NCBI GenBank assembly: GCA_965204855.1
Contig: OZ242018.1
Coordinates: 304,185 to 368,184, forward strand
Length of the DNA stretch: 64,000 nt
Direction of reading: 5' to 3'
Source of the DNA: Dehalococcoidia bacterium
GTDB taxonomy: Bacteria > Chloroflexota > Dehalococcoidia > Lucifugimonadales > JADFKI01
The position numbers and the translations under genes are program-made. Positions 16,413 to 62,595 of the stretch are shown one piece after another (position 1 is the stretch's first letter; each line of letters opens with the position of its first letter). Under the pieces are notes generated by a model that was not told the origin of the DNA, did no database searches, and worked only from the letters and a program-made list of their open reading frames with translations.

Positions 16413-16450
16413 CTTTCGGTAGCCATGACACGTTCCCTCATATCTAAGTG

Positions 16451-16480
16451 AAAAGCCCCCACCAGTTTCCCGGCAGGGGC
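16451..16480 (-). terminator. Intrinsic terminator
   Basis: On the minus strand: GCCCCTGCC-loop-GGTGGGGGC followed by TTTT. Confidence 0.65.
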
Positions 16481-16510
16481 ACATCTGCAGTTGTTTTCAC
16501 TGGAAATCTC

Positions 16511-17110: not shown

Positions 17111-17189
17111 GAACCAATCCTCTTGTTCATCAAGTAAGAAGAGGGCGACAGCACGAGCCGCCGCCCTCCGAATCTTCCGGTGCAGCAGG

Positions 17190-45775: not shown

Positions 45776-48181
45776 CTACTCCCCCTTCGGCATCCGGAAG
45801 CCGACGCGGGGCTCGGTGAAGATGTATGTGGGGCTGCTTGCGGCGTCGCCCAGCTTGCGGCGGAGCTTGCTGACCATCGTGCGCATTGGCCGCACGCTGC
45901 CGTCGCCCCTATCCCTCCAGACGCGCTCCAGCAGGTGCTCGTAGGTCAGCACCCTTCCGGCGTGGGCCGCCAGCTCCGCCAGCATCCCGTACTCCGTAGG
46001 GGTCAGCTCCACGCGGCGGCCGGCCAGTGTCACCCTGCGCTGGGAGTAGTCGATTGTCAGGTCGCCCAGCGTGTACGGCTCCGACGGCTCTTCGGTCACG
46101 CGCCTGCGCAGCGCCGCCCTGATCCTCGCGGAAAGCTCGGTGGGAGAGAACGGCTTGACCACGTAGTCCACCGCCCCCATCTCGAACGCCCTGGCGACGA
46201 CCTCGTCCCGCCCGTATGCGGACAGGAAGATGACCGGCACGTCCGCCACATCCAGGATGTCGCGCATCAGCTCTATCCCACCGATGCCCGGAAGCATCAG
46301 GTCCAGCAGCACCAGCTCGGGCCTCTCCTCCTCCACGAGGCGCACCGCCTCATCCGGGTCTCCGGTCACCACCGGCGCGTAGCCTGACACGGTGAGCGTA
46401 TCGCGGATGTAGCGGAGGTCGTTGGGGTCGTCGTCCACCGCGAGCACCCGCACCCGATCCTCCGGGTCCATCAGCCCGCCTTCCCGCGACCCGGCTGGGA
46501 CGAGCCGGAGCGCGCCCGCCGCGCCGTGCCCCGTCCCCTCCACCGTCGGCAGGGTGAAGGTGAAGCGCGCGCCCAGGCCAGGCCCGTCGCTCTCCGCCCA
46601 TATGCGGCCCCCGTGCGCCTCCACGATACCCTTGCAGATGGCAAGCCCCAGTCCCGTGTCTCCTCCCCGCTCCTCGGACTGCACCGCTGAGAACTTGCGG
46701 AACAGGTGTGGCATGCTCTCTGCCGGGATGCCTCGCCCTTCGTCTGCCACCGAGACCGCCACATACACGGCTTCCCTCACCGCGCTCACCCTGATGACCG
46801 ACGACTCCGGCGAGTGACGCGCCGCGTTGGCGAGCAGGTTGCCCAGCACCTGCGCGATGCGCCGCCTGTCGGCCATCACCAGTGGCAGGCCCGGCTCGAT
46901 GTCGATGGCAAGGTCGCTCCTGCCTCCCGCGCTCCTGAAGGCGTTCCTCGCCCGATCTACCAGCACTGCCACCTCCGCCGGCTCGGGGCTGACCGGCAGC
47001 GTGCCCGTCTCGATGCGCGCCACGTCGAGCAGGTCGCCGACCAGAGCGTGCATGTGGTCGGCCTGGTCGCCGATGATGCGGAAGAACTGGCGCACCACGG
47101 CGGGGTCCAGGTCGGCGGGCGAGTCCAGCACGGTCGATGCCGAGCCCTTGATGGAGGTCAGGGGCGCGCGCAGCTCGTGGCTGACCATCGCCAGGAACTC
47201 AGCGCGCATGCGCTCCAGCTCCTCGACGTCCGCCATGTCCTGGAGGGTGACCACCATAGACTCGACCTCCCCCTCCTCAGAGCGGATGGGCGTGGCGTTG
47301 ATCAGGGTGGTCACGCTGCGCCCGTCAGGGACGCTGATGACCACCTCCTCTGCGCGCAGCGTCTCCCCCGAGCGCAGCGCCTCGGCAATCGGGAACTCCC
47401 GCAGCGAGACCTCCCGCCCGTCCGCCCGCCGGAAGGTCAGCACGCCGAGAAGGTCCTGCGGCGACTGGTCGGGGTCGCGCAGGCTATCCACGATCCGCCG
47501 CGCCTCACGGTTGAAAGACTTAGGCGCTCCGGTCACGGCGTCGAAGACCACCACGCCCACTGGGGAGGTGTCTATCAGCGTCTCCAGGTCGGCCCTGGCG
47601 CGCTGCTCCTCCCGGTGCCGGCTGGCGTTGGCGATTGCCATTGCCGCCTGCGCCGCGAACAGCACCAGCGTCTCTTCGTCCTCACGGGTGAACTCCTGCC
47701 CGCCTTCCCTTTCGCCCAGTTTTTCGCCCAGTTTTTCGCCCAAGAGAATGTATCCCACACGCTCACCGCGGTTCGTTATGGGAGCCAGCAGGAAGGACAT
47801 CGCCGCTCCCGCATCCGTGGGCGGGCCGAGTTCCGGCAGGCCCATGTCTCTGAGGTGGGTGTTCAGGTCGGCGACCCGAAGCGCGCCGGGGAGTTCGCCG
47901 AAGTAGCGCAGCAGCCGCTCCCCGCCCGGCATGTCGCGGAACCGGCGCGCCTCCTGCTCGGTTACGCCGGAGAAGAAGACGTCCTGGAGGCCGAGGGAAT
48001 CGTCCACGAGGGTTATCGCGCCGTAGCGAGCGCCGGTGAGGGAGCGGGCGGAGTCGAGCACGCCCTGGAGCACGGTGTTGAAGTCGAGGTCTTCGGTGAT
48101 GCGGAGGCTTGCGCTGCTCAGGCGTGAGAGGCGCTCTTCCAGTTCCCGTATCCGTATGTCTTGCTCGTCGGGTCCGTTCAT
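45776..48181 (-). CDS. Fused sensor histidine kinase / response regulator with OmpR-type DNA-binding domain (GAF-PAS-HisKA-HATPase-REC-wHTH)
   Basis: H-box MVSHELRAPLTSI. N/G boxes NLLANAARHSP, DEGRGIP and GLGLAICKGIVEAHGG. REC segment VLAVDDDPNDL...LLDLMLPG. C-terminal LTPTEYGMLAELA...VWRD...VRPMRTMVSKLRRKL winged helix. Confidence 0.9.
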   Translation of the reverse strand: MNGPDEQDIRIRELEERLSRLSSASLRITEDLDFNTVLQGVLDSARSLTGARYGAITLVDDSLGLQDVFFSGVTEQEARRFRDMPGGERLLRYFGELPGALRVADLNTHLRDMGLPELGPPTDAGAAMSFLLAPITNRGERVGYILLGEKLGEKLGEREGGQEFTREDEETLVLFAAQAAMAIANASRHREEQRARADLETLIDTSPVGVVVFDAVTGAPKSFNREARRIVDSLRDPDQSPQDLLGVLTFRRADGREVSLREFPIAEALRSGETLRAEEVVISVPDGRSVTTLINATPIRSEEGEVESMVVTLQDMADVEELERMRAEFLAMVSHELRAPLTSIKGSASTVLDSPADLDPAVVRQFFRIIGDQADHMHALVGDLLDVARIETGTLPVSPEPAEVAVLVDRARNAFRSAGGRSDLAIDIEPGLPLVMADRRRIAQVLGNLLANAARHSPESSVIRVSAVREAVYVAVSVADEGRGIPAESMPHLFRKFSAVQSEERGGDTGLGLAICKGIVEAHGGRIWAESDGPGLGARFTFTLPTVEGTGHGAAGALRLVPAGSREGGLMDPEDRVRVLAVDDDPNDLRYIRDTLTVSGYAPVVTGDPDEAVRLVEEERPELVLLDLMLPGIGGIELMRDILDVADVPVIFLSAYGRDEVVARAFEMGAVDYVVKPFSPTELSARIRAALRRRVTEEPSEPYTLGDLTIDYSQRRVTLAGRRVELTPTEYGMLAELAAHAGRVLTYEHLLERVWRDRGDGSVRPMRTMVSKLRRKLGDAASSPTYIFTEPRVGFRMPKGE

Positions 48182-48218
48182 CTCTTCACCTCTATACAGG
48201 AATCGGTGTCAGCGCGGT

Positions 48219-48285
48219 CAATTATGCCGCATTCGGCGTATAGTTACAATAAGTTACAGATATTTGCGGATAAAGTGACGCAATA
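48219..48285. promoter_or_regulatory. Conserved regulatory block, copy 1 (in-phase AGTTACA direct repeats)
   Basis: AGTTACA at 48242-48248 and 48252-48258, AGTGAC at 48274-48279 (spacings 10 and 22 bp). Preceded by the palindrome ATGCCGCAT. An almost identical block lies at 53383-53449. Confidence 0.55.
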
Positions 48286-48451
48286 GAAATATTTGTAGTG
48301 GTAAGATGCCGTGTGGGTTTGCCCATCACACGGGAGGTACGCACTCGTCTCTTGAAGGAACCCCGCCCGGACCGGCAGCATTGGCGCCGATGGCGGATAC
48401 CTCAGAACCAAGGTATATGACGATAAACAGCTCAGCGATAGGAATGATTCA

Positions 48452-51400
48452 ATGAGAAGGTTTACCATAAGCAGCAGTCCGTCCACAATTACGGCCCGGC
48501 TCATGACCAGAGCGGGACTTGTTCTGCTCGCGCTGTTAGCGTTCGCGGCATCGGTGGGAACGCCCGTGGCATTCGCGCAGGAAGCCACATGCTCTACGGG
48601 CACGGCGGTTCCTGACGTGGCGAACAATCCCGGACTGGTGGCGGACTGCGAGGCGCTGCTTGCGTCGAAGAGTGTACTCGACCCCGGTGGTACGCGCCTC
48701 AACTGGAGCGCGACCGTTTCGATGTCGTCCTGGCAGGGTGTCACACTGAGCGGCACACCGCTCCGCGTAACCGAGCTGTCCCTCGCCGGTAACCCCGCCG
48801 ATCCCGACAGGCAGCTGACCGGCAGCATACCCGCGAAACTGGGCGACCTCGACAGTCTGACTTTTCTGTACCTGTACGGTAATCGATTGACGGGGAGTAT
48901 CCCGGCGGAGCTGGGCAACATTGGCAGCCTGTTGAACCTGTTCTTGTACGACAACCGACTGACGGGCAGCATACCCGCGGAACTGGGCGACATCAGCGGC
49001 CTGCTGAATCTGCTTCTCCACGACAACCAGTTGACGGGCAACGTTCCCGCCGACCTGGGTGATCTCAGCAGCCTGAGGGTGCTGAACCTGAAGTGCAACG
49101 AACTGATGGGCAGCGTTCCGTCCGAGTTGAGCGGCCTCTCCGGCCTCAGGGCAAATTCACTCTCGCTCTACGGCAATCAGCTTACCGGCTCTGTGCCCTC
49201 CGGGCTTGCCGACAAGCTGGAGCCGCCGGGACTGTCCCGTTCGGGCTGCGCGCGTCCGCCACGATTCGAGGATGGCACACCCACGACCTTGACCATCGAG
49301 GCGGGCGCGCAGTCCGGCGCGAATGTGGGCGACCCCGTAACTGCCTACGACCCGGACGGAGATACGCTCGCATACAGGCTGTCGGGGGATGACGCCGCGT
49401 CATTCGCCATTGCCGCAGATGGACAGATGAAAGTCGCGGCGCAGACACTGGAGGTCGGCGACTACGAGGTGACCATCGAGGCAAGCGACGGGACGGGACG
49501 CACCGCCAGCACAGCCGTGACCATCAGCGCGACGGCGCCGCCGAGTCCGTGCTTGACTGGCGCTGCGGTCCCTGACGCGGCGAACAACCCCGGCCTGGTC
49601 AAGGACTGCGAGGCGCTGCTGGCATCGAAGGATACGCTCGACCCCAGTGGCACAAAACTCAACTGGAGCGCGAGTCTATCGATATCCTCGTGGTGGGGCG
49701 TCACCCTTGAAGGAACTCCGTCCCGTGTCACAAAATTGAACCCCGACAGCTACCAGTTGACGGGCAGCATTCCCACAGAGTTGGAAGACCTCTCTAATTT
49801 GACGTATTTGAGCCTCTGGGGCAACCAGTTGACGGGCAGCATTCCCACGGAACTGGGCAACCTCTCCAACCTCAAGCAACTGCACCTCCACATCAATAAG
49901 TTGACGGGCAGCATTCCCACAGAACTGAGTAACCTCTCCAACCTGACCGAGCTGGTCCTCCACAGCAATCAGTTGACGGGTAGCATTCCCACGGAACTGA
50001 GTAACCTCTCCAACCTGGAGTTTCTGACCCTCGGCGATAAGCTGACGGGCAACATTCCCGCGGAACTGGGCAACCTCACCAACTTGACGGAACTGCACCT
50101 CCACAGTAATGAATTGACGGGCAGCATACCCACGGAGTTGAGCAACCTCTCCAACCTGAAGGGGCTGGGCCTCGCCAGAAATCAGCTGACGGGTAGCATT
50201 CCTACGGAGTTGGGCAACCTCTCCAATCTAGAGAGTCTGCGGCTCAGTGGCAACCAATTGACGGGCAGCATTCCTACGGAGTTGGGCAACCTCTCCAACC
50301 TGCAGATACTGATCTTCAGCGACAACCAATTGACGGGCAGCATTCCTACGGAGTTGGGCAACCTCACTAACTTGTGGGCACTGAGCTTCAGCGACAACCA
50401 ATTGACGGACAGCATACCCACGGAGTTGGGCAACCTCGCCAACCTGCAGCATTTGTGGATCAGCGACAACCAATTGACGGGCAGCATCCCTACGGAACTG
50501 GGCAACCTCACCAATCTGTTAGAGTTGCATCTCGCCAATAATCAGTTGACGGGCAGCATTCCTACGGAACTCGGGAATTTATCCAATCTGGGGACTCTGC
50601 ATCTTGAAGGTAACCAATTGACGGGCGCTATACCCGCGGAACTGGGCAACCTCCGGAATGTGATTTCCATATATCTACAATGCAACGAACTTACGGGCAG
50701 TGTCCCTACCGAGCTAGGAAGTCTAAACAACATAGAGGTAAATTATCTAATCCTCTACGGCAACCAACTCACGGGTTCCGTCCCGTCCGGACTTACCGAT
50801 AAATTGCGGTCCCCAGGCTTGTCGCGTTCAGGCTGTGCGCGTCCCCCACGCTTTCCGGAGGGTACGCCGATGAAGATTGTGCTCACTTCCAGCGCACAGG
50901 CGGGTGTGAATGTAGGCGACCCAGTAACAGCTTACGACCCGGATGGCGACACGCTCACTTACACTCTGTCCGGTCCCGATGCCGCATCATTCGCCGTCGC
51001 CGCGAATGGGCAGCTCAGCATCGGCGCTTCAGCTCTTAGCGGAGGTGACTACGCGGTGACGGTAACCGCTGGCGACGGCACGTTCTTCGATAACGAAGAG
51101 GACGAGAGAGTGGAGCGAACCGCGAGTATCGATGTGACGATCACCGTGGCCGCACCGCCCGAGCAACTCGGCACGCCCGATGTGTCCGCCGCAAGCACGA
51201 CCAGCCTGAATGTCAGCTGGACCGCTCCGGACAGCGGCTCCGCCATAACCGACTACGACCTGCGCTATCGCGTGAGCGGCAGCGACGGCGAGTTCACCGA
51301 CTTCGAACACGAGGGTACGACCACATCCGCAACCATCGCGGGATTGGCGCAGAACACCGAGTACGAGGTGCAGGTGCGCGCGGTCAACGCTTCGGGGACG

Positions 51401-53077
51401 GGCGAGTGGTCGCTGTCCGGTATCGGCAGCACGAACGCCCCCAACCATGCGCCGAGCTTCCCGCCGGACATCGTCAGTTCCGACGGCTACGCGCGCCGCA
51501 GCATGATCGAGAGCGTGGGCGCGACTGTCTCGGTCGCGGCGGACCTGGGAGCTCCTATCGCGGCGACGGACCAAGACGGCGACGCCCTGACTTACAGCCT
51601 TGTCCTCGATGAGGGCGATGCGGGCCTGTTCACGATAGACCCAAGCAGCGGCCAGATTCGCACGACGGCAAGCATCTACGACTATGAAGCCCGCAGCGGG
51701 TATCTCGTGCAGGTAGAAGTGAGCGACGGCAAGGACGCAGAGGGCATATCCGACGACTCGCCGGACGCCTCGGTCGATGTGCTCATCGAGATACTGGATG
51801 TCAGCGAACCCCCGGTCGGGCGACTCTCACTGACCACGGGACTGGTTGGCGCCAACCGGCTGAGCATTTCGTGGAACGAGCCCGACATGGCTGGGCGTCC
51901 TCCGGTCACCGGCTACGAGGCGCAATACCGCACTGCAGGTAGGCACTTCGCCGACGCCACCCCCACGGTCAACGGCCGGAGCGTGGACATCAGAGGCCTG
52001 AGTCCGTATACCTTGTACAAGATCCGGGCGCGCGCGCTCAACGAGGACGGAGCGGGCGAATGGGCGCTGCGGTCGATACAGACCGTCAGATCGAACGCAC
52101 CTCCCAGCCTTCCCACCGGGCTGATAACGCGCGATATAGACGAGAACGCCGCACCGGGAGCCGCCGTCGGCGCGCCTATAGCGGCGACGGATGACGACAA
52201 GGACGCGCTGGCGTACAGCTTGCAAGAGACCGGGGACGAGGAAGTGGACGGCGCATTCACGATAGACGGTAGCGGACTTCTGCGCGTGAGCGGGAGTCTG
52301 GACTATGAATCGCGTGTCGCGTATCTGCTGGTGGTGCAAGTCAGTGACGGGAAGAACGATGACGGCAATCCTGACGCTTCGGTGGACGACACGGTTACGG
52401 TGCTCGTTCGCCTGGGCGATGTCTTTGAACTGCCCCCTGCGCCTGCCGCGCCAACGGTGACTCCCGCCAGCGCCACCGCGCTGACGGTCGAGTGGACTGT
52501 GCCCGGTGCGGCCGGATCGCCGGAGATAGACAGATACATACTGCTGTACAAAGCCGCAAGCGCCGCTTCGTATGAGGACGTGGACATCTCCGGCGCCGAG
52601 AGCAGCGCCACGCTGCTGGGGCTGAGACCCGACACCCTGTACGATGTGCAGGTTCATGCCTACATTGACGAAGTCGGATTGGGCCCGCCGTCTCCTGCGG
52701 GTCAGGGCAGGACGAATGCCCTCAACTCCGCGCCAAGCTTCCCGAGCGCCGTGGCGGTGCGTCGAATCGATGAGAGCATCGGCGCAGCGGTATCGACGGT
52801 AGAGAAGGTGGGCGCGCCGGTGGAGGCGCAGGACGGAGACGGGGACGCTCTGACATACGGCTTGCAAGGAGCCGGCAGCGGGCACGCGGCGTTCTTCACC
52901 ATCGATCCCGCAACCGGGCAGCTAAGCACTGTCCGAAGAAACTACGACTACGAGACCGTGAGAGCTTACCTGCTCGTGGTGCAAGTGAGCGACGGCAAGG
53001 ACGCCTGGGGGATGTCCTCCGATGCGGTGGACGCGCGCGCCACGGTCATAATTCAAGTGCGCGACTTGGACGAATAA
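48452..53077 (+). CDS. Secreted giant protein: two plant-type LRR blocks, cadherin-like and FN3 domains (1541 aa)
   Basis: Signal peptide ...LALLAFAASVGTPVAFA|QE. LRRNT-like caps (DCEALLASK..LDP....LNWS.....W.GVTL) are followed by 24-residue LTGSIPTELGNLSNL repeats. Cadherin-like modules (DPDGDTLAYRLSG...) and FN3 (PDVSAASTTSLNVSWTAP). Confidence 0.9.
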   Translation: MRRFTISSSPSTITARLMTRAGLVLLALLAFAASVGTPVAFAQEATCSTGTAVPDVANNPGLVADCEALLASKSVLDPGGTRLNWSATVSMSSWQGVTLSGTPLRVTELSLAGNPADPDRQLTGSIPAKLGDLDSLTFLYLYGNRLTGSIPAELGNIGSLLNLFLYDNRLTGSIPAELGDISGLLNLLLHDNQLTGNVPADLGDLSSLRVLNLKCNELMGSVPSELSGLSGLRANSLSLYGNQLTGSVPSGLADKLEPPGLSRSGCARPPRFEDGTPTTLTIEAGAQSGANVGDPVTAYDPDGDTLAYRLSGDDAASFAIAADGQMKVAAQTLEVGDYEVTIEASDGTGRTASTAVTISATAPPSPCLTGAAVPDAANNPGLVKDCEALLASKDTLDPSGTKLNWSASLSISSWWGVTLEGTPSRVTKLNPDSYQLTGSIPTELEDLSNLTYLSLWGNQLTGSIPTELGNLSNLKQLHLHINKLTGSIPTELSNLSNLTELVLHSNQLTGSIPTELSNLSNLEFLTLGDKLTGNIPAELGNLTNLTELHLHSNELTGSIPTELSNLSNLKGLGLARNQLTGSIPTELGNLSNLESLRLSGNQLTGSIPTELGNLSNLQILIFSDNQLTGSIPTELGNLTNLWALSFSDNQLTDSIPTELGNLANLQHLWISDNQLTGSIPTELGNLTNLLELHLANNQLTGSIPTELGNLSNLGTLHLEGNQLTGAIPAELGNLRNVISIYLQCNELTGSVPTELGSLNNIEVNYLILYGNQLTGSVPSGLTDKLRSPGLSRSGCARPPRFPEGTPMKIVLTSSAQAGVNVGDPVTAYDPDGDTLTYTLSGPDAASFAVAANGQLSIGASALSGGDYAVTVTAGDGTFFDNEEDERVERTASIDVTITVAAPPEQLGTPDVSAASTTSLNVSWTAPDSGSAITDYDLRYRVSGSDGEFTDFEHEGTTTSATIAGLAQNTEYEVQVRAVNASGTGEWSLSGIGSTNAPNHAPSFPPDIVSSDGYARRSMIESVGATVSVAADLGAPIAATDQDGDALTYSLVLDEGDAGLFTIDPSSGQIRTTASIYDYEARSGYLVQVEVSDGKDAEGISDDSPDASVDVLIEILDVSEPPVGRLSLTTGLVGANRLSISWNEPDMAGRPPVTGYEAQYRTAGRHFADATPTVNGRSVDIRGLSPYTLYKIRARALNEDGAGEWALRSIQTVRSNAPPSLPTGLITRDIDENAAPGAAVGAPIAATDDDKDALAYSLQETGDEEVDGAFTIDGSGLLRVSGSLDYESRVAYLLVVQVSDGKNDDGNPDASVDDTVTVLVRLGDVFELPPAPAAPTVTPASATALTVEWTVPGAAGSPEIDRYILLYKAASAASYEDVDISGAESSATLLGLRPDTLYDVQVHAYIDEVGLGPPSPAGQGRTNALNSAPSFPSAVAVRRIDESIGAAVSTVEKVGAPVEAQDGDGDALTYGLQGAGSGHAAFFTIDPATGQLSTVRRNYDYETVRAYLLVVQVSDGKDAWGMSSDAVDARATVIIQVRDLDE
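49757..50762 (+). repeat. Tandem 72-bp coding repeat (14 units, one of 69 bp) encoding 24-aa LRRs
   Basis: The (T/C)TGACGGG... anchor recurs at 49757, 49829, 49901, 49973, 50042, 50114, 50186, 50258, 50330, 50402, 50474, 50546, 50618 and 50690. Confidence 0.9.
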
Positions 53078-53140
53078 CGCAAGAAGAACCACAAACGGAC
53101 AGGGGCAGGTTACCCATGTGGCGGTGCGGAACAGCAACCT

Positions 53141-53309
53141 GAGCGGCGGGCTGCCGTCCGGTTTCACCAGCATGGGCGGCCTGCAACGGGCTAGCCATCG
53201 CCAATACCGGCATCTGCATTCCAGCGGGTGACACGTTCAGCGATTGGCTGGCCGCGGTGCCTGACAAGCCGGGGATCGATGGGCTGACGGCCTGCGCCTC
53301 ACCATAAGC
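53141..53309 (+). pseudogene. Frameshifted remnant of the LRR C-terminal tail module (paralogue of 62430-62598)
   Basis: Aligns base-for-base with the last 169 nt of the 3004-aa gene, including the stop, except for substitutions and one extra base (caacgGgctagcc versus caacgcctagcc). It is out of frame with, and downstream of, the stop of the 1541-aa gene. Confidence 0.75.
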
Positions 53310-53382
53310 GCGGCAGTACAATGTAGCCTGCAGGATGCAACCATCCTACAGGCTCTAACTCGTTTGAGTGCTGGGTTCGGGC

Positions 53383-53449
53383 CAATTATGCTGCATTCGG
53401 CAGATAGTTACAATAAGTTACAGATAATTGCTGCTAAAGTGACATAATG
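53383..53449. promoter_or_regulatory. Conserved regulatory block, copy 2
   Basis: AGTTACA at 53406-53412 and 53416-53422, AGTGAC at 53438-53443. Same spacing as copy 1, preceded by the palindrome ATGCTGCAT. Confidence 0.55.
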
Positions 53450-53580
53450 GTAATGCCTATGGTGCTATGATGAAACGTGGGTCCCCCATCAGCGGGAGAT
53501 ATCTATTTGTCTCTCAAACGGACCCGGACCGGCCGCATTGATGACGCGCCGCCGCACCCGAATCAGACCGAGGATAAATT

Positions 53581-56500
53581 GTGATGAACAGTAGCAGCCA
53601 TGGCGTAGCACAATCACAACTCCTGAAAATCGGGGGGGGGGGGGTGGACTCCAAGAGAAGGCTCCAGATTCCCCTGGCCGCCGTACTCTTCGCTCTGGCG
53701 GCGTTTCTTGCCTTGTGGCAACCTGGCGCAGAAGCTGCCCCGGCGCAGCAGGCCACCGTACCGGGCGTGCCCACCAACCTCATCCTCACCTCAGACGTTG
53801 ATTCGATCACCCTCTCCTGGACGGCGCCCACTTCCGACGGTGGCTCTCCTATCACCTATTATCACATCACGTACCAGAGGGGCGATACAACAAGGGACTA
53901 TTGGACCGACACTGACGGGCCGCCCGGCAGCGACCCCCTCGCTACCACGCTCACCATTTCAGACCTCGATGTTGGCAGGTACGAAGTAACCGTAACCGCC
54001 GGAAATACAAACGGTGAAGGCGACCCCGTCACCGGCACCATCGCCACCTCCACTTACGTCACGCCCGTCATCTCCATAGTGTCCGACAGCTTAGATGAGG
54101 GTGCGACTACATCCATTGTCGTCAGAATCGATCCCGCGCCGGCCGGGGCCGTGAATTTCGATTATCAGGCCTCCAGGGAATCCGGCAACACTGCCGCAGT
54201 CGGGGACACTTTCGCTATTCAAACAGGCTTGGACATCTCCAATGAAAAGTATACAGACGGGTTCTTTGACGACTTCGAGGGAAACCAGGAGTACTCCCTT
54301 TACATAGAGATCGTACAGGACGCCATAGATGAGGACGACGAGACCTTCACGTTAACCCTGTCCAACCTGACCGGCAGCGACGCCACGTTCGAGGGCGGCA
54401 CGGGTACATTGACCAAGGTAATCACCCTCATCGACGACGACAGGGCGGCCAGCGCGCCGCAAAAGGTTCATGCTTACGAGGATGACTCCGGCCTCTGGGT
54501 GGCTTGGGACGAACCGGCCGACCTGGGGGAAGAGGATGGCGCGACGGGTTCGATCCAGTACTACGAATACCGCACCTCAACGACGAGCGGCTCCCTGGCT
54601 GTAGCGTCGTGGGATTCGACGTTCGACACCGGCACAAGCCTCCTCATCGCCAACCCGACCACCGGCAACCATTACTTTCAGGTGCGCGCAATCACCCATT
54701 ACAACGGGGCGATCGCCGGCGCAATCTCCAATGTCGCAGCCGCCACAGCCGACACCGACGTCGTGTTCGCAGTAACTACCCCCGGATTCATCGTTACCGA
54801 GGGCGAGTCCGCAGATCTCCGTGTGCGTCTGGCGACGCAACCCACGGCCAATGTCACCTTGTCCATATCTGAAAGCTCCGCAGATATCAGCTTGGACAAG
54901 TCTTCACTGACTTTCACCCCCACGGACTTCGACTCGGACGGTTCCAACGGTTTTGACGATTACCAGGCTATCAAGGTGACTGCCCGCGAGGACGACATGG
55001 ATGACGCCGACGAAGCGGCGATTATCAATTTCACAGTAACCAGTACCGACCCCAACTACGGCGGGAAGACCGTCGTGGCAAGCGTGATCATCGAGGACGA
55101 CGAGTCCACGCTGGTCCCGCCGGAGAACTTCCAGGCAACGCCGCGCGACAAGCGTATCGATGTCTCCTGGGACGCCCAGACCGGCGCCGCGTCCTACACC
55201 ATCACCTGGAGCTGCGGCAGCGCTTCAGCGCAAACCCATACCACCGCCGATGGGGATGCTACGACCTACACCATTCCCGGCCTGACCAACGGCACCGAGT
55301 GCTCCGTCTCCATGCGAGCCAACGGCACTGAAGTGGACGGCGGCACCTTCGACAGCGCCTCGACTGCCAGCATGACCGCCACACCGCTCCCACTCGTCGT
55401 AGTTACCCCAACTGTCCTGTCCTTGAACGAGAACCTTTCGCACACGGACAACACCGGCGAGTACACCATCGTCCTGACGCAAGAGCCGACGAACACCGTA
55501 TTCATACTGGTAAATAACCCCGATTCCTCCAAGTTGGACATCAGCGCCGGATCATCCGGCGAGCTGACCTTCACGCCCAGCGACTACGACCAGCCGCAAA
55601 CTGTCTCCGTTTTTGCGCTACAGGACGACGATCCGGTGGACGACACCCTCACCGTGACGAACACCGTATCCCACAGCTCTGACCCCGCATACAGCGGCCT
55701 CGTCATTGACAGCGTTACAGTAACGGTGACCGACAAAGACCATGCCGCGATTGATACATCGCCGTCGTCGCTGGACGTGACCGAGGGGAACCAGGATACC
55801 TTCAATGTCTTTTTGTCGTCCAAGCCGGCGGGCAACATCGTCGTCAACGCAGTTAGCGCCGATACTGACACGGTTACCGTAAGCCCGGATAAGCACACCA
55901 TCGCGCCGGACGATTACTTCAGTGGAGTCGATTTCACCGTAACAGCGCAGCAGGACTCCGACGGGTCGGACGCAACCGTTCAAATTACGTTCAGCATAAA
56001 CACCGGCGAGTCTGTGGATAAGAACTACCCCGCTCCCAACATCATCCGGGCGGTCAACGTATTCGACGACGACACGCGGGGCGTCACCCTTGCCTACGTC
56101 ACTTATCCAGACGTGAATGAGAACGGGGGCACGGCTACCTACACCCTCGTGCTCGATACTAAGCCGACGGGTCCTGTGACCATCAGGCCGCAAAGCTCTG
56201 ACGTCAGCAGTGCTACGGTGATGCCGTCATCGCTGACCTTCGATGCCTCAAATTGGGACGACCCTCAGACCGTTGCCGTCACCGGCGTCAACGACAACAT
56301 CGACAACAGCAACGACTTCCGCAGCGCAATCATCACCCACAGTGTCAGCGGCGGCGATTACGGCGAAGTGGACACATCAGCGTCGGATCTGTTCATTAGC
56401 GTGAACGACGACGACACCCGGGGAGTTACGGTTACGGCCACTGATCCGTTGGAAGTGCCGGAGAGCGGCTCGGCCCAATATACCGTCGTGCTGAACACAC

Positions 56501-59500
56501 AACCCACCGGTACGGTTACGGTTACGCCGGAAGTTGACGGCAACAGCGCCGACCCCGGCTCGGTCACCGTGTCCGGCCCGCTGACCTTCGATGCCTCGAA
56601 TTGGAGCGACCCGCAGACCGTTAACGTTACCGGCGTCAACGACAATATCGACAACGCCGGCGAGATGCGTGAAGCCACCGTCACCCACACGGTGAGCGGC
56701 GCCGACTATGCGTCTGAGTCGGCCGATAGCGTGAATCTGCACGTTACTGACGACGACGATGACCCCACGGTTGGCCTGGTTTTGAACCCGGACAACATCA
56801 GCGAATCCTCACCGGGCAACGTCGCCACCGTAACGGCCACGCTGAGCCATCCCTCCGACGCCGCAACCACCATCACCGTGACGACAATGCCGGCAGCGGG
56901 TGATTTCGCCCTCAGCTCCACCCCGACGTTGACCATCGCCGCCGGCGCAACCACCAGCACAGGCACGGTTACCATCATGGCCCGAGACGACGCCGACAGC
57001 GTTGCGGATGTCGTCAGCGTTGGGGCTACCGTGGTCAATACTGAGGGATTTGTGGCGCCCGCTGCCAGAACACTCACCATCACCGACGATGATTCGGCCG
57101 GCGTAACGGTCAGCGCCGCCGACCCGTTCGCGGTTCCTGAGGGCATGGGGGCGGACTACACCGTCCAGTTGGTCAGCCAACCCACCGGCAACGTGGTCAT
57201 TAACATCGGCGTAACCGGCAGCAGCGACGTTTCGACCACCCGGAACCAACTCTTGTTTGACGCGTCGAATTGGAGCGACCCGCAGACCGTAACCGTAAAC
57301 GCCTCCGATGACCAGGATGCGGTAGCGGACACGGCAACCATCACCCACACCATCGACCAAGGGGCAACCGTCAGCGAGTACGACGGCGTCAGTGTCCAGA
57401 ACATCAGCGTCCAGGTGACGGAGAACGATTTCCGGGGCATCGTCATTGACACCGACAGCGTGATGAGTGGCGTCCAAACCACACCCATCACCATCGCCGA
57501 GGCCGACGGCGAAGGCGCGGACTACTCCATCCGGTTGGAGAGCCAACCCACCGCGACGGTAACCATCAGCGTCCGAAGCTCCGACACCAGCATTGCCCGA
57601 GTGACACCGGGCAGCCTCAGGTTCACGCCTACCAATTGGAGCGACCGCCAGGAATTCACCGTCCACCCCGTGCCGAACGACATCGACGACCCGGGCGACA
57701 GGCGCACCGCCACTTTCAGCCACACCGTGTCCGGCGGCGACTACGCCGGCGATACGGCCGCCTCAGTAACCGTGGACGTAACCGACGACGACACCCGGGG
57801 CATATCGGTGGACACCGACGGTGTACTGAGTGGTGTCCAATCCACGCCCATCACCGTCGTCGAGAACGCAACGGCCATCTACACCGTGGTTCTCACCAGC
57901 CAGCCCACCGGGACCGTAACGGTCACCCCCAACAGCCTCAGTCCAGACGTTGCCACAGTCAGCCCCGCGTCCCTGCGTTTCACGTCAGGAAACTGGAGCC
58001 AGGCTAGGACCGTCACTGTAAGGCCCGTCAACGACGACAAAGACAACGCCGGCGAGAAACGCACGGCAACCCTTAGGAACGATGTAGCAGCTCCTGGCTC
58101 TGACTATGTGTCGGTCTCCGCCTCCAGCGTGACAGTGGACGTTACCGACGATGAGGATGACCCCACCGTTTCCCTGGCGGTTGCCCCGTCCGCCATCGTT
58201 GAGAACGGAGAGGCCGCTCTGATAACTGCCACACAGAGCATCGTCTCGGACGCTGATACCATCGTTACCGTTACTGCAACGCCGGATGTCGAGAATTTCA
58301 ACGTGGATTTCGAACTTCTCGGAACAACCCTGACTATTCCCGCCGGACAGACCGGCAGCGTGGGTCTCGTGTCCATCCGGGCGCGCCGGGACGCCAACAC
58401 CGCCGACTACACGGTGGCAATTTCCGGCAATGCGGACAACATAGAAGGCGTCAATGATCCGGCTGACGTACAGGTTACCGTCGGTGAGGAAGCCGAGCCC
58501 GGCGCCACGCTGTTCCCCGCCGACCTCCTCACAGTCGAAGAGGGTTCTACCTCCATCTACACGCTGGTCCTGAACCGGGAACCCCTGGGCGACGTGGTAA
58601 TCCAGGCGCGCGTCACCGGCAACAGCGACGTCACGATTGATACCGACGAGATTATGAACGGCAACCAGGACACGCTGACCTTCACGCTGGAGAACTACCG
58701 CGACCCCCAGATCGTAACCGTCCGGGCCGCCTCGGATGATGACGCAGCGAATGATACGGCCTCCGTGACCCACAGCGTCGTCGCCTCCCAAAGCTCCAAC
58801 GAGTACGACAGCGTTGCCATCGCCGCTTTGAACGTGAGGATAAACGACGACGAGACCGCTGGGGTAACCGTCACTGAAAGCAATTTGCGCATCGAAGAGG
58901 GCCGCAGCGATACATACACCGTCCGGCTGAACACGCCACCCGTGGGCAATGTCCGCATCGCCGTCTTCAGCAACCATGATTACATAACCGTCAGCCCCAG
59001 TGCGTTCACACTCACCCGGAGCAACTGGCAGCGAGGGCAGACCGTAACCGTCCGCTCCCGAAACGACGACGAGGCCCTGCCGGTGTCGGCCAGGCTTACC
59101 CATACCATCGACGCCGATGCTACCACTGCCGACGAGTACGACGGCAAATACGTCGCACGCGTGGACGTGGACGTCATCGACGATGAGTCGCCGGTGGACT
59201 ACGACCGCGAAAACAATGGCCGCATCGACATCACCACGAGGGAGCAGCTGAACGCCATCCGCTGGGACCTGGACGGCGACGGAGAGGCGGACGACGCGAA
59301 CAACGACAGCCGCTACGCTGCCGCCTTCCCGCGCATCATGGAGAACATGTGCGACGAGGACTTCACCGAAACTGCAATTGGCGGCGACCCCGGCAACTGC
59401 ACGGGATACGAGCTGGCCAACGACATCACCCTGTCGGGCAGCTGGACGCCCATCGGTGGCAACCAGGATGACGAGGACTTCTCCGATCCCGCGGAGTACG

Positions 59501-62500
59501 ACGCCGAGTTTGACGGCAACGGCTACACCATCAGCAACCTGAGCATCAGCCGGGGCGACCGGATCAACGTGGGGCTGTTCGGTGCGGTCGGCGACGGAGC
59601 CGAAATCCGCGAAGTTGGCGTGGTGAAAGCCAACGTGCGCGGCTTTGCCCATGTGGGCGCGCTGGCGGGCCGCAACAACGGCACGATTTTGGGCGCATGG
59701 TCAAACGGCCATGTGTCAGGCAACGCGTTCGCGGGCGGCCTGGTGGGCTGGAACATGAAAGGCAGCACCGTCGAGCGGAGCTTCTCCAAGGCCGAAGTGA
59801 CCGGCTTCAACTCCTCTGACCAGGGCGGTCCCCTCTGGTCCACGCGGATCGCCGGATTGGTGGGTGGAAACTACGGCACGATAGCGAACACCTACGCTAC
59901 GGGCAGCGTGCGGGGCAGGGGCCATGTCGCCGGCCTGACCGGGGAAAACAGCCACAGCAAAGGCATCAGTAACGGCGTCAGCAACGACATCAGCAACAGC
60001 TACTCCATAGGCGCGGTGTCCACCGAAGAGGACTGGCCCTTCGTGGGCGGCCTGGTCGGCTGGCAGACGGCTACGGTGACCAGCAGCTACTGGGACACCG
60101 AGGCCTCGGGTCAAAGCGAAGGTTACAGCCAGGGCGAACCTTCCGGCGCTGTCGGCAAGACCAAAACCGAGCTGCAAGCGCCCACCGGCCCTGACGCCGA
60201 CACTGACGGCGACGGCAACCCCGACACCTACGTCGGCTGGAGCGCAAGCGTCTGGAACTTCAGGGATGACGACAAGTACCCCTGCCTGATAGATGTGGGA
60301 GATTGCCCAGCGCCAACCGCGACGCAGCCGGAGCCGCCGGACTCCACGCTACAGCCGGTCCTGGCAATGCGGGCAAGCGTAACGGTTGACGCCATCGACC
60401 CGGTGGAGCTGGCGGAAGGCGGCTCGGCCACCTATGAGATGTATCTGGACGGCCAGCCCACCGACAACGTGACCATCACGATGAGCAGCGACAACGGCGA
60501 CATCACGCTGGAGCCGTCGTTCCTGACCTTCACGCGTGACAACTGGCACACGGCGCAGTCCGTAACCGTCCGCGTGGCACAAGACGACGACGCGGCGAAC
60601 GACACCGCGACCGTCAGACACGCGGTCGGCGGTGCCCACGAGTACGCCGGCATCACGGTTGACACCGTTGCCGTTGCCGTATCCGACGACGACACTGCCA
60701 GCATAACGGTGCAGCCGACCAGCCTCACCCTGCCGGAGGGCTTCACCGGCTCCTACTCGATATCGCTGTCCCACCGGCCCGTCGGCGAGGTGCGAATCTT
60801 CATGCTCAGCGACAACCCCGACGTTGTGCCGTACCCGGACCCGATCATCTTCACCCCGGACAACTGGCAGACGGAACAACTGGTAGGGGTCCCGGCGGCA
60901 CACGACGACGACGTGGCGGACGATGAAGCCTTCATCACCCACGGAATCCTAGCCGCCACCGGGTCCGGGTACACCAGCGCGACGGTGGCATCCGTAGTTG
61001 TGTCCATAACCGACGACGACGAACCCGCCGCTCCGGGCGTCACGGTGTCCGCCGCCGACCCGGTAACGGTTGCGGAGGGCGGTTCAGCCACCTACCAGGT
61101 GTCGCTGGACGCGCCGCCCACAGGCGATGTAACCATCACCGCGAGCAGCGACAACGGCGACGTTACGGCGCAGCCGGCCAGCCTCACATTCAACCCGGAC
61201 AACTGGCAGAACGCGCAGACCGTAACCGTCAGCGCGGCCCATGACAACGATGCGGTTGACGATACCGCTGCCGTCAGCCACGCCGTCAGCGGCGGCAACT
61301 ACGACGGGGTGGCGGCGGCATCCGTAACCGTCAGCATCGACGATGACGACAGTGCCGGCGTTACGGTGGAGCCGTTGACCCTCATGGTTATCGAGGGCGG
61401 CGACAGTGCGTCCTACACGGTGGTTCTGGATACCGAACCCAGCGCCAATGTGGTAATCGACGTGAGCAGCGACAGCGCCGACGTAAGCACGCAGCCGACC
61501 GAGTTGACCTTCACCACCGGCGACTGGCAGACCGCGCAGACCGTGACCGTCAGCGTCGGACAGGATGACGACAGCGACCCGGACAGGGCAACCGTCAGCC
61601 ACGAGGTCAGCGGCGCAGCCGAGTACGACGGTATCGACGCAGCCGGTGTAACCGTACTCATAAGCGACGACGATCCGATCACCCTGCCCGCCACCGATGC
61701 AGGGAGTGTAACGGTGGAGCCGTTGACCCTCGACATAACCGAGGGCGGCGACGGCGCGTCCTACACGGTGTCGCTGGACGTCGAACCCAGCGCCAATGTG
61801 GTCATAGACGTAAGCAGCGACAACGCCGACGTAAGCACGCAGCCGGCCAGCCTCACCTTCACCACCGGAGACTGGCAGACCGCGCAGACCGTGACCGTAA
61901 GCGCCGGAAAGGACGACGACAGCGACGACGAGACGGCAACCGTCAGTCACCAGGTCAGCGGCGGCAACTACGACGGCGTAACGGCTGCATCGGTAGCCGT
62001 CAGCGTAACCGACGACGACCAGGAAACGGAGGAACCCGTCGCCGAAACCGACCCCAACCGGGCGGCACTGGAGGCGTTCTACAATGCCACGGGCGGCGCA
62101 AGCTGGACCAACAACGCCAACTGGCTGAGCAATAGGCCGCTGTCCGAGTGGCACGGCGTAACCACCAACGGGCATGGCGAGGTAACCACCATAGTCCTCG
62201 ACGGGAACAACCTCACCGGCAGCCTGCCCGCCGAGCTAGGCAACCTGGGTAGCCTCACACGTCTCGCGCTGAACCGCAACGGCCTCAGCGGCGCCATCCC
62301 GTCGCAACTGGGCAGCCTGCCCAACCTGAGCATCATCGGCCTGGCACGCAACCAGTTGAGTGGGTCGCTACCTGCGAGCCTGGGCAACCTGCCGCTCACG
62401 CGGCTGTCGCTCCACGACAACACAGAGTTGAGCGGACCGCTGCCGTCCGGCTTCACCAGCATGGGCAGCCTGCAACGCCTAGCCATCGCCAACACCGGCA

Positions 62501-62595
62501 TCTGCATCCCCGCAGGCGACGCCTTCACCAACTGGCTGGCGACGGTGCCCGACAAGCCGGGGATCGACGGACTGACCACCTGCGCCTCACCATAA
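53581..62595 (+). CDS. Giant secreted protein (3004 aa): FN3, Calx-beta-like and related beta-sandwich repeats, GLUG-motif region, C-terminal plant-type LRR
   Basis: FN3 (VPGVPTNLILTSDVDSITLSWTAP). A Calx-beta-like first module. At least a dozen modules carry ...TF(T/D)xxNWxxxQTVTV...DD.D signatures. The GLUG-like stretch includes FAGGLVGWN, IAGLVGGNYG and FVGGLVGWQ. The C-terminus has LTGSLPAELGNLGSL LRRs. The true start may be GTG at 53644. Confidence 0.9.
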   Translation: MMNSSSHGVAQSQLLKIGGGGVDSKRRLQIPLAAVLFALAAFLALWQPGAEAAPAQQATVPGVPTNLILTSDVDSITLSWTAPTSDGGSPITYYHITYQRGDTTRDYWTDTDGPPGSDPLATTLTISDLDVGRYEVTVTAGNTNGEGDPVTGTIATSTYVTPVISIVSDSLDEGATTSIVVRIDPAPAGAVNFDYQASRESGNTAAVGDTFAIQTGLDISNEKYTDGFFDDFEGNQEYSLYIEIVQDAIDEDDETFTLTLSNLTGSDATFEGGTGTLTKVITLIDDDRAASAPQKVHAYEDDSGLWVAWDEPADLGEEDGATGSIQYYEYRTSTTSGSLAVASWDSTFDTGTSLLIANPTTGNHYFQVRAITHYNGAIAGAISNVAAATADTDVVFAVTTPGFIVTEGESADLRVRLATQPTANVTLSISESSADISLDKSSLTFTPTDFDSDGSNGFDDYQAIKVTAREDDMDDADEAAIINFTVTSTDPNYGGKTVVASVIIEDDESTLVPPENFQATPRDKRIDVSWDAQTGAASYTITWSCGSASAQTHTTADGDATTYTIPGLTNGTECSVSMRANGTEVDGGTFDSASTASMTATPLPLVVVTPTVLSLNENLSHTDNTGEYTIVLTQEPTNTVFILVNNPDSSKLDISAGSSGELTFTPSDYDQPQTVSVFALQDDDPVDDTLTVTNTVSHSSDPAYSGLVIDSVTVTVTDKDHAAIDTSPSSLDVTEGNQDTFNVFLSSKPAGNIVVNAVSADTDTVTVSPDKHTIAPDDYFSGVDFTVTAQQDSDGSDATVQITFSINTGESVDKNYPAPNIIRAVNVFDDDTRGVTLAYVTYPDVNENGGTATYTLVLDTKPTGPVTIRPQSSDVSSATVMPSSLTFDASNWDDPQTVAVTGVNDNIDNSNDFRSAIITHSVSGGDYGEVDTSASDLFISVNDDDTRGVTVTATDPLEVPESGSAQYTVVLNTQPTGTVTVTPEVDGNSADPGSVTVSGPLTFDASNWSDPQTVNVTGVNDNIDNAGEMREATVTHTVSGADYASESADSVNLHVTDDDDDPTVGLVLNPDNISESSPGNVATVTATLSHPSDAATTITVTTMPAAGDFALSSTPTLTIAAGATTSTGTVTIMARDDADSVADVVSVGATVVNTEGFVAPAARTLTITDDDSAGVTVSAADPFAVPEGMGADYTVQLVSQPTGNVVINIGVTGSSDVSTTRNQLLFDASNWSDPQTVTVNASDDQDAVADTATITHTIDQGATVSEYDGVSVQNISVQVTENDFRGIVIDTDSVMSGVQTTPITIAEADGEGADYSIRLESQPTATVTISVRSSDTSIARVTPGSLRFTPTNWSDRQEFTVHPVPNDIDDPGDRRTATFSHTVSGGDYAGDTAASVTVDVTDDDTRGISVDTDGVLSGVQSTPITVVENATAIYTVVLTSQPTGTVTVTPNSLSPDVATVSPASLRFTSGNWSQARTVTVRPVNDDKDNAGEKRTATLRNDVAAPGSDYVSVSASSVTVDVTDDEDDPTVSLAVAPSAIVENGEAALITATQSIVSDADTIVTVTATPDVENFNVDFELLGTTLTIPAGQTGSVGLVSIRARRDANTADYTVAISGNADNIEGVNDPADVQVTVGEEAEPGATLFPADLLTVEEGSTSIYTLVLNREPLGDVVIQARVTGNSDVTIDTDEIMNGNQDTLTFTLENYRDPQIVTVRAASDDDAANDTASVTHSVVASQSSNEYDSVAIAALNVRINDDETAGVTVTESNLRIEEGRSDTYTVRLNTPPVGNVRIAVFSNHDYITVSPSAFTLTRSNWQRGQTVTVRSRNDDEALPVSARLTHTIDADATTADEYDGKYVARVDVDVIDDESPVDYDRENNGRIDITTREQLNAIRWDLDGDGEADDANNDSRYAAAFPRIMENMCDEDFTETAIGGDPGNCTGYELANDITLSGSWTPIGGNQDDEDFSDPAEYDAEFDGNGYTISNLSISRGDRINVGLFGAVGDGAEIREVGVVKANVRGFAHVGALAGRNNGTILGAWSNGHVSGNAFAGGLVGWNMKGSTVERSFSKAEVTGFNSSDQGGPLWSTRIAGLVGGNYGTIANTYATGSVRGRGHVAGLTGENSHSKGISNGVSNDISNSYSIGAVSTEEDWPFVGGLVGWQTATVTSSYWDTEASGQSEGYSQGEPSGAVGKTKTELQAPTGPDADTDGDGNPDTYVGWSASVWNFRDDDKYPCLIDVGDCPAPTATQPEPPDSTLQPVLAMRASVTVDAIDPVELAEGGSATYEMYLDGQPTDNVTITMSSDNGDITLEPSFLTFTRDNWHTAQSVTVRVAQDDDAANDTATVRHAVGGAHEYAGITVDTVAVAVSDDDTASITVQPTSLTLPEGFTGSYSISLSHRPVGEVRIFMLSDNPDVVPYPDPIIFTPDNWQTEQLVGVPAAHDDDVADDEAFITHGILAATGSGYTSATVASVVVSITDDDEPAAPGVTVSAADPVTVAEGGSATYQVSLDAPPTGDVTITASSDNGDVTAQPASLTFNPDNWQNAQTVTVSAAHDNDAVDDTAAVSHAVSGGNYDGVAAASVTVSIDDDDSAGVTVEPLTLMVIEGGDSASYTVVLDTEPSANVVIDVSSDSADVSTQPTELTFTTGDWQTAQTVTVSVGQDDDSDPDRATVSHEVSGAAEYDGIDAAGVTVLISDDDPITLPATDAGSVTVEPLTLDITEGGDGASYTVSLDVEPSANVVIDVSSDNADVSTQPASLTFTTGDWQTAQTVTVSAGKDDDSDDETATVSHQVSGGNYDGVTAASVAVSVTDDDQETEEPVAETDPNRAALEAFYNATGGASWTNNANWLSNRPLSEWHGVTTNGHGEVTTIVLDGNNLTGSLPAELGNLGSLTRLALNRNGLSGAIPSQLGSLPNLSIIGLARNQLSGSLPASLGNLPLTRLSLHDNTELSGPLPSGFTSMGSLQRLAIANTGICIPAGDAFTNWLATVPDKPGIDGLTTCASP
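53632..53644 (+). repeat. G13 homopolymer at the 5' end of the 3004-aa gene
   Basis: Thirteen consecutive G counted directly. Read as GGGG plus the first base of GTG in the track ORF. GTG at 53644 begins a canonical signal peptide (VDSKRRLQIPLAAVLFALAAFLALWQPGAEA). Confidence 0.95.

Follow-up and report, generated by a model that had tools for sequence, protein, structure and literature searches.

The regions upstream of two giant surface-protein genes in a 64,000-nucleotide stretch of contig OZ242018.1, from an uncultured member of the Dehalococcoidia (Chloroflexota), are copies of one element (this stretch is hereafter the window, and coordinates given without a locus label are positions in it). 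With a probability of roughly 0.55, we read this element as a portable cassette of this lineage, about 160 bp long, that combines a two-way promoter, an operator and a leader, would be bound by a dimeric fused kinase-regulator, and would govern both the regulator's own promoter and the promoters of the giant genes. The regulator gene (45776..48181, minus strand) is divergent from giant gene 1 (48452..53077, plus strand) across cassette copy 1, and cassette copy 2 (53383..53532, plus strand), identified by its homology to copy 1 and with no regulator gene adjoining, precedes giant gene 2 (53581..62595, plus strand).

The homology of the two upstream regions, 48219-48451 and 53383-53580, had been claimed in an original prediction made from the letters of the window, and it is borne out by a MAFFT alignment of 48182-48470 with 53320-53600, in which the mean column identity is 77% and the homology starts at 48219 in copy 1 and at 53383 in copy 2. 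The three repeated words reported there are present as well: AGTTACA occupies 48242-48248 and 48252-48258 in copy 1 and 53406-53412 and 53416-53422 in copy 2, and AGTGAC occupies 48274-48279 and 53438-53443, 22 bp after the pair in both copies, with offsets of 10 and 32 bp that place the three sites on roughly one face of the helix. Read on the minus strand, the tandem hexamers AGTTACA-ATA-AGTTACA (48242..48258) are TGTAAC-N4-TGTAAC, a putative dimer site for a winged helix-turn-helix (wHTH) domain, and AGTGAC is GTCAC, a putative third half-site. The pattern AGTTACA-N3-AGTTACA (AGTTACANNNAGTTACA, up to two mismatches) matches the 64-kb window only at 48242 and 53406, compared with a mean of 0.04 matches in shuffled sequence and two matches in none of 100 shuffles. 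The divergent kinase-receiver-wHTH gene said to start at 48181 is also found, as an open reading frame (ORF) at 45776-48181 on the minus strand that contains all the named domains.

A consensus promoter scan called TTGTAA-17-CATAAT on the minus strand of both copies (48249..48221 and 53413..53385). In copy 1, the -10 element CATAAT of this candidate regulator promoter (48221..48226, minus strand) lies inside the best-conserved block, GGCATAATTG (48219-48228), and the minus-strand reading of the proximal repeat gives the -35 element TTGTAA (48244..48249, minus strand); as this repeat falls at the -35 position of TTGTAA-17-CATAAT, it doubles as the regulator's -35. The predicted 5' untranslated region (UTR) of the regulator (48182..48214, minus strand), the start of which is placed by the -10, comprises 33 nt including the Shine-Dalgarno sequence GAGGTGA before the ATG at 48181, and this stretch is also kept in some of the cassette copies that lack an adjoining regulator (secondary copies, described below). 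On the opposite strand, giant gene 1 is preceded by an extended -10 element, TGGTAAGAT (48299..48307, plus strand), with the family consensus TGnTAnnnT, whose T, G, T, A and T are invariant across all 17 copies of a multiple alignment. No plus-strand -35 was found at the proper distance from the extended -10 in the cassette copies. AGTGAC, which lies at about -40 of the giant-gene promoter, was considered for this role and rejected, being 21-22 bp from the -10. Copy 2 has the same complement of elements: a minus-strand -10 (53385-53390) and -35 (53408-53413), the repeats (53406-53422), AGTGAC (53438-53443), an extended -10, TGCTATGAT (53463-53471), and a leader.

The cassette is a recurrent partner of this regulator. 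We built an nhmmer profile of 157 columns, from CAATTATGC to CCCGGACCGGC, and ran it over the window and 12 fetched loci of relatives (304 kb in total; fetched loci carry labels within L001-L080), which yielded 17 cassette copies. A cassette lies upstream of 13 of the 13 fetched orthologues of the GAF-PAS-HisKA-HATPase-REC-wHTH regulator (69-94% protein identity), with E-values from 1e-46 to 1e-4, the two weakest being at homologues of 76-77% identity. The four secondary copies, which have no adjoining orthologue (window 53383-53532, L003 6006-5855, L001 9117-9016 and L077 3597-3487), each precede another giant surface-protein gene with fn3, cadherin, CLIPPER or leucine-rich repeat (LRR) domains. 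The regulator in the relatives is again divergent from giant genes of the fn3/LRR/cadherin/CLIPPER/Calx-beta kind. On the regulator strand, the spacing of GTCAC-N17-GTAAC-N5-GTnAC-N15-GCATAAT is identical in seven copies from six genomes, and the spacer between the hexamers is 4 bp in all 15 strong copies.

Among 185,579 species genomes, the four-part pattern (21 specified bases) is matched twice; each match precedes a regulator orthologue, and each is in a metagenome-assembled genome (MAG) labelled 'Dehalococcoidia bacterium'. An 18-base repeat pattern retrieved 68 loci from a metagenome collection, all of them chance matches and none from Dehalococcoidia; nearly all are one coding sequence of a common human-gut bacterium. 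A position weight matrix of the repeat pair, applied at 12 bits or more, finds 20 places in the 304 kb, 17 of them inside cassettes. The original prediction had named membership of a widely dispersed repeat family as an outcome that would count against it; the motif was examined in this respect and is not a dispersed repeat, a family like the repetitive extragenic palindromes or miniature inverted-repeat transposable elements (REP/MITE) being ruled out by the species-genome, metagenome and weight-matrix scans.

Several loci depart from the usual arrangement. In L001 (9283-9741), the closest relative (94% identity), a split AhpC-TSA peroxiredoxin gene, not a giant gene, comes after the regulator-side cassette, and the second cassette (9117-9016) stands ahead of the giant genes. 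In L005 (1548-1733) and L080 (9622-10000), two divergent paralogous fused regulators flank the cassette, in place of a regulator on one side and a surface-protein gene on the other. In L003, an insert of about 150 bp (9790-9960) with internal inverted repeats (CGTCATTCCCGCGAAAGCGGGAATC...) intervenes between the cassette and the start codon of the regulator, and beyond it the last part of the regulator UTR occurs a second time; the insert has a MITE-like look.

Across the 17 copies, the alignment resolves into conserved blocks, namely CAATTATGCC, GTTACAAtAaGTTAC, aAaGTGAC, AyrGwAAy, TGnTAnnnT and the leader. The 11 orthologous copies whose regulator gene is complete were compared with window copy 1: the repeat block is identical at 11-15 of 15 positions (about 89% conserved), CAATTATGCC at 7-10 of 10 and AAAGTGAC at 2-8 of 8, and the spacers at 2-8 of 14 and 7-13 of 19 (38-64% overall); the identity at four-fold degenerate sites of the regulator gene is 0.51-0.81. 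Block GGCATAATTG is about 94% conserved, and the GTCAC block at its fixed 22-bp distance has on average 6.2 of 8 positions conserved. Between the two window copies, the repeats are identical at 15 of 15 positions and spacer C at 10 of 19. Given that the repeats are conserved far above the spacers and the four-fold sites, the blocks are under selection, and recent duplication alone is insufficient to account for them. Judged by this alignment, the putative half-sites are under purifying selection relative to the flanking non-coding DNA.

The same alignment disposes of two further elements of the original prediction. The palindrome ATGC-N-GCAT (ATGCCGCAT / ATGCTGCAT) can be seen in each window copy, but relatives have a variable right arm (GCAA, GTAC, TCAT, GCTT and GTCT), and the block GGCATAATTG that had been read as palindromic is instead the -10 of the regulator promoter. 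The TGGG..CCCA hairpin likewise occurs in both window copies, but in relatives the left arm reads GAG or AAG and nothing compensates for the change. Neither is conserved among relatives, and both are therefore rejected as functional elements.

The regulator is a fused sensor kinase/response regulator of 801 amino acids with the Pfam architecture GAF-PAS-HisKA-HATPase_c-REC-Trans_reg_C (E-values of 1.4e-24 for Response_reg and 2.4e-18 for Trans_reg_C). It is predicted to be soluble because the Pfam domains tile residues 32-797, and with the H-box histidine and the receiver aspartate and lysine motifs intact, the phosphorelay should work. Its relatives fill more than 120 database clusters at 71-94% identity, the named members of which are Chloroflexota/Dehalococcoidia MAGs save for one labelled Acidimicrobiia. 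Among solved structures, those related to the regulator output are MtrA, KdpE, PrrA and VicR, the closest being Mycobacterium tuberculosis MtrA for the REC-wHTH fragment (2gwr, 3e-41) and VicR/WalR for the wHTH alone (2hwv, 1e-17). The best NCBIfam match of the response-regulator part is MtrA (167 bits, compared with a cut-off of 300), with YycF at 145 bits (cut-off 340); every model stays below its cut-off, and the regulator is therefore no orthologue of a named system. Orthology with WalR or MtrA in particular is ruled out by these scores together with the fusion to its own kinase, as opposed to a stand-alone protein paired with WalK or MtrB.

The DNA word resembles those of the closest characterised relatives of this protein. 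The half-sites of WalR/VicR are TGTWAH-N5-TGTWAH (PMC4168254), the site of Streptomyces coelicolor MtrA is G/T-T-G/A-A-C-C-N5-G-T-G/T-A-C-N, i.e. GTnACC-N5-GTnAC (PMC5650626), and that of Corynebacterium glutamicum MtrA is n-A/G-T-a-A-C-a, i.e. nRTaACa (PMC6265350). Both hexamers of the cassette, TGTAAC, match TGTWAH exactly and include GTnAC, and they stand in direct orientation as in the published WalR and MtrA sites; the WalR/VicR-type spacer of 5 bp (11-bp period) is not found in the cassette, where the spacer is 4 bp. As at the operators of the OmpR/PhoB family, a REC-wHTH regulator is encoded nearby, direct half-sites lie about one helical turn apart and purifying selection is evident. 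In sum, the TGTAAC repeats look like putative docking sites of the adjacent regulator.

Cassette-linked orthologues have the same or nearly the same recognition helix, RPMRTMVSKLRRKL, which differs from those of two paralogues among the fused regulators of the fetched loci (RPLRAFVKTLRRKL and QVVRTFVKNLRHKL). The paralogue in L002 has no cassette upstream, and that in L080 is divergent across a cassette. The upstream region (17583-17900) of the L002 paralogue (15333-17582) contains a repeated word of its own, two copies of GTAACCGT at a distance of 13 bp, a hint that every paralogous fused regulator may have a separate operator word. Two other observations concern the regulator gene itself. 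The public DNA assemblies X1 and X2 contain a second haplotype of its 5' coding region (window 48044-48173 and 47966-48002), with 5 substitutions per 130 nt, so that closely related strains coexist in the sample. In L074, CBASS-like genes (cyclic oligonucleotide-based anti-phage signalling; a SMODS nucleotidyltransferase and a CD-NTase C-terminal domain; 14035-14955) lie just downstream of the regulator orthologue.

Downstream of the extended -10, the leader of giant gene 1 (48312..48451, plus strand) contains the conserved series GCCCA..CGGGAGG..GTCTCT..GGAACCC..CCCGGACCGGCAGCATTG at about 48321-48383. The consensus in the multiple alignment is GAGTyyGCCCA..GCGGGAG..TTGTCTCTCgAAcGGACCCaaCCCGGACyGGCCGCATTGA, and in 12 copies conservation extends over about 75 nt following the predicted start, whereas the leader is absent from the secondary copies of L001 and L077 (L001b and L077b) and from the L005 copy. 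There is no Rfam match at the gathering score over the window, and a search of 48150-48500 at E<=10 returned one chance match to a small nucleolar RNA only. RNAalifold, run on 7 and then on 12 leaders, gives 8-15 pairs, of which 1-2 show two-sided changes, and supports only a short GGGAG/CUCUC hairpin; a long-range helix GTCCGCC/GGCGGAC that is seen by eye in some copies is not general, and a conserved upstream ORF is ruled out by a 5-nt indel between the window copies that breaks the frame. As a sequence, then, the predicted leader is a conserved element.

Taken together, these features are compatible with a mechanism in which two promoters share one operator. Leftward, a sigma-70-type promoter (-35 TTGTAA, 17-bp spacer, -10 CATAAT) would drive the fused kinase-regulator gene; rightward, an extended -10 promoter (TGnTAnnnT, no -35) would drive a leader of about 105-140 nt and a giant secreted repeat protein; and between the two would lie three half-sites in the same orientation, TGTAAC-N4-TGTAAC and then GTCAC two helical turns on. 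An intracellular signal would be sensed by the soluble GAF-PAS kinase part, the kinase would phosphorylate its own receiver domain, and the two MtrA/WalR-like winged-helix domains of the dimer would dock head-to-tail on the tandem hexamers, aided by the GTCAC half-site. At the regulator promoter, the site would occupy about -46 to -30, a PhoB-like geometry that would provide for autoregulation; at the giant-gene promoters, the pair would span about -72 to -56 and the third half-site would lie close to -40, a geometry that would fit the activation of a promoter devoid of a -35, although the sign of control (activation or repression) is one that we infer. Duplication of the whole cassette would bring further surface-protein genes into the same regulon.

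The proposal that the regulator controls itself and both surface-protein genes through the repeats was the core of the original prediction, and the OmpR/PhoB-type output domain, the fixed spacing, the linkage in 13 of 13 cases, the conservation and the half-site match all speak for it; the coincidence of the proximal repeat with the -35 and the 10-bp period do not. Indeed, a number of observations weigh against control by the regulator. The role of the proximal hexamer as a -35 would by itself suffice to conserve TTGTnA, and the most conserved block, GGCATAATTG, is a -10 and not a regulator half-site. The period of the hexamers is 10 bp compared with 11 bp in the WalR/VicR and S. coelicolor MtrA consensus; the third half-site stands alone, with no conserved partner 10-11 bp away; and in the most distant homologues, L075 and L076, the GTAAC repeats are arranged differently. 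Among the cassette-linked orthologues, changes in the recognition helix and changes in the hexamers show no consistent covariation. The transcription starts, near 48214 (minus strand), 48314 (plus strand) and 53478 (plus strand), are predictions, which also counts on this side; a search for RNA runs containing the locus returned none, X1 and X2 being DNA assemblies. Finally, the regulator-side -10 and part of the regulator UTR persist in secondary copies where that side carries no gene, a pattern unexplained by any model; these retained elements may reflect a divergent non-coding transcript or homogenisation by gene conversion.

Alternatively, the hexamers could be core promoter elements only, with the proximal one serving as the -35 and the distal one, in its AT-rich surroundings, as an UP-like element of a strong constitutive two-way promoter that the regulator does not bind. 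The promoter call on both copies, the fact that the most invariant positions are the TTG/ACAA of the proximal hexamer and the -10, and the AT-richness of the region within a genome of 60-67% G+C are all in line with such an arrangement. We nevertheless consider it unlikely, given that conservation of the distal hexamer (GTTAC, at about -45 to -40) equals or exceeds that of the proximal one, for which a -35 gives no reason, that the GTCAC block is also conserved at its fixed distance of 22 bp, that the three elements are one word in one orientation and in helical phase, and that this word matches the half-sites of the closest characterised relatives of the wHTH domain. If the repeats are a true operator, the factor that binds them might still be a different one, from the OmpR family or unrelated to it, and the linkage with the regulator would then be shared synteny. 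These genomes encode several paralogous fused kinase-regulators, a single cassette is flanked by two regulators in L005 and L080, and the recognition helix does not covary with the hexamer. However, all 13 members of a single orthologous group, whose recognition helix hardly varies, have the cassette upstream; the helices of the paralogues examined are different, and the upstream region of the L002 paralogue has no cassette. Moreover, autoregulation through sites in the own promoter is the common case among two-component systems. A different factor appears rather improbable.

Two other explanations shift the emphasis away from the repeats. The key part could be the transcribed leader, acting as a cis-regulatory RNA (a riboswitch, or the target of a small RNA or an RNA-binding protein), with the repeats being secondary; this explanation is compatible with binding of the regulator to the cassette. 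It draws on the conservation of about 75 nt in 12 copies, with CCCGGACyGGCCGCATTGA nearly invariant, and on the small GGGAG/CUCUC hairpin, which keeps its pairing with few two-sided changes. We give it little credence, considering that the few pairs found by RNAalifold come with covariation terms of +0.74 and -0.51 kcal/mol, the minimum-energy folds of single leaders disagree, Rfam offers no match, and the L001b, L077b and L005 copies keep the promoter part without the leader. The likeness of the window copies might, on the other hand, be the trace of a tandem duplication or gene conversion that is recent and serves no selected function: the copies are 5.2 kb apart and precede related genes with common N- and C-terminal modules. 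Such neutral duplication is contradicted by the conservation of blocks relative to spacers, both in orthologous copies whose four-fold sites are 51-81% identical and whose spacers have diverged and between the window copies themselves, where the spacers have diverged around identical repeats, and we regard it as extremely improbable.

A regulator/operator pair of this kind would have partial counterparts among known systems. In the pho box of PhoB, tandem direct repeats on the coding strand overlap or replace the -35 and are oriented with the transcription of the regulator's own gene, in a case of positive autoregulation. The cassette resembles it in having direct repeats at the regulator's own -35 that point along its transcription but differs in that the repeat itself contains a reasonable -35 (TTGTAA), the distance from the end of the site to the -10 is 16 bp rather than 10 bp, and the half-site sequence and period are different. 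With WalR/VicR (YycF) of the Firmicutes it shares an OmpR-family wHTH that acts (here, by prediction) on direct hexamer repeats, with TGTAAC fitting TGTWAH (PMC4168254). The differences are a spacer of 4 bp compared with 5 bp and a period of 10 bp compared with 11 bp; a regulator that is fused to its kinase, soluble and outside a walRK operon; the recognition helix (RPMRTMVSKLRRKL here, RTVDVTVRRLREKI in WalR/VicR); and the targets, giant surface proteins here and cell-wall hydrolases there. MtrA of the Actinobacteria is the best full-length REC-wHTH match and has a GTnAC core, GTAAC or GTCAC in the cassette, in direct repeats (PMC5650626, PMC6265350), whereas the cassette regulator falls below the NCBIfam MtrA cut-off (167 compared with 300 bits), the period is 10 bp rather than 11 bp, and the architecture is fused. 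The hybrid two-component systems (HTCS) of Bacteroides are membrane proteins with periplasmic sensors and AraC-type outputs (PMC11253607). They likewise unite kinase, receiver and DNA-binding output in one polypeptide and control adjacent genes for surface functions, as predicted here, but the cassette regulator is soluble, with GAF-PAS input and an OmpR-type wHTH.

The giant genes downstream of the cassettes show several peculiarities. Giant gene 1 encodes a protein of 1541 amino acids with LRR, fn3, cadherin and Big_9 domains, and giant gene 2 one of 3004 amino acids with fn3, fn3_6 and C-terminal LRR domains (ORF calls and Pfam). After the stop codon of gene 1, a frame-shifted remnant (53078..53307, plus strand) of the module that ends gene 2, the C-terminal LRR / AIANTGICIPAGD..CASP module (ANTGICIPAGD..CASP), is recognizable, and gene 1 looks truncated or recombined at its 3' end. 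Between this remnant and cassette copy 2, direct reading of the sequence reveals an inverted repeat, GCCTGCAGGAT..ATCCTACAGGC (53326..53353, plus strand), which may be a terminator, one without a T run. A common N-terminal peptide, M(T)MNSSGH..QS..K(L/I)GG, follows the leader and precedes the signal sequence. The homologous start of gene 1 forms a separate small ORF, MTINSSAIGMIQ followed by a stop, at 48417-48455 (ATG 48417, 12 codons), out of frame with the main ORF; its TGA (48453-48455) overlaps the main ATG at 48452 (ATGA). In the LRR array of gene 1 (48900-50630), the short-read assemblies X1 and X2 have many skips of 37-1419 nt, which most likely represent assembly collapse over near-identical LRR units, with real variation in repeat number as a possibility.

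Homopolymer tracts recur immediately after the cassettes. The 304 kb contain five runs of at least 9 nt, and the longest three all follow a cassette at a distance of 74-100 nt: G13 in the window (53632-53644), C11 in L079 (9715-9725) and C14 in L074 (9711-9724). About 1.7% of the sequence searched falls within 300 nt downstream of a cassette. The window tract (53632..53644, plus strand) spans codons 18-22 of giant gene 2, in frame as assembled, and is confirmed in the independent DNA assembly X1, and the X2 assembly breaks at 53586-53640; in L079, the conserved start and the called ORF are in different frames because of the tract. The position of the tracts suggests that they may mediate slipped-strand phase variation and, more generally, the sequences suggest a family of genes whose ends are conserved and whose bodies vary, possibly with phase variation. 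In the phase-variable surface-protein genes of Mycoplasma (vlp/vsp) and the contingency loci of Neisseria, conserved 5' ends are likewise combined with homopolymer tracts. The cassette genes are similar in having a conserved promoter, leader and N-terminus before variable repeat-rich bodies and long homopolymer tracts at the 5' end; they differ in that the G/C tracts, known here from assembled contigs, are located in the leader or the N-terminal coding part rather than between the -35 and the -10, and that the organism is an uncultured, probably host-associated member of the Dehalococcoidia. A host-associated lifestyle is likely; the public runs that contain a few percent of the words of this locus include coral and sponge metagenomes.

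One could go further and picture the cassette as the 'expression head' of an antigenic-variation-like surface-protein system in an uncultured Chloroflexota symbiont, a speculative scheme that we consider doubtful. The genes would share the promoter-operator, leader and N-terminus as well as a C-terminal module, and would be switched individually by slippage of the tracts, switched collectively by the fused regulator and reshuffled through their conserved ends. If this were the case, the frame-shifted C-terminal remnant of gene 1 and its out-of-frame start would be traces of recombination between conserved ends.

Direct-repeat operators and autoregulation of two-component systems are textbook matter. 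What is new here is the cassette itself, the regulator family that combines a soluble GAF-PAS kinase with a WalR/MtrA-like output, and the link to giant repeat-protein genes. To our knowledge, almost nothing is known of transcriptional control in uncultured Dehalococcoidia or of the regulation of the 'eukaryote-like' LRR, fn3 and cadherin proteins of symbionts, and the cassette provides a concrete, if predicted, pairing of regulator, operator and target in a widespread regulator family. Should the regulator bind as proposed, a DNA word would be defined for a soluble fused kinase-regulator with WalR/MtrA-like output, and whole promoter-operator modules would have been copied to put new surface-protein genes under the same control, with the recurrent homopolymer tracts as a possible second, random layer of control.

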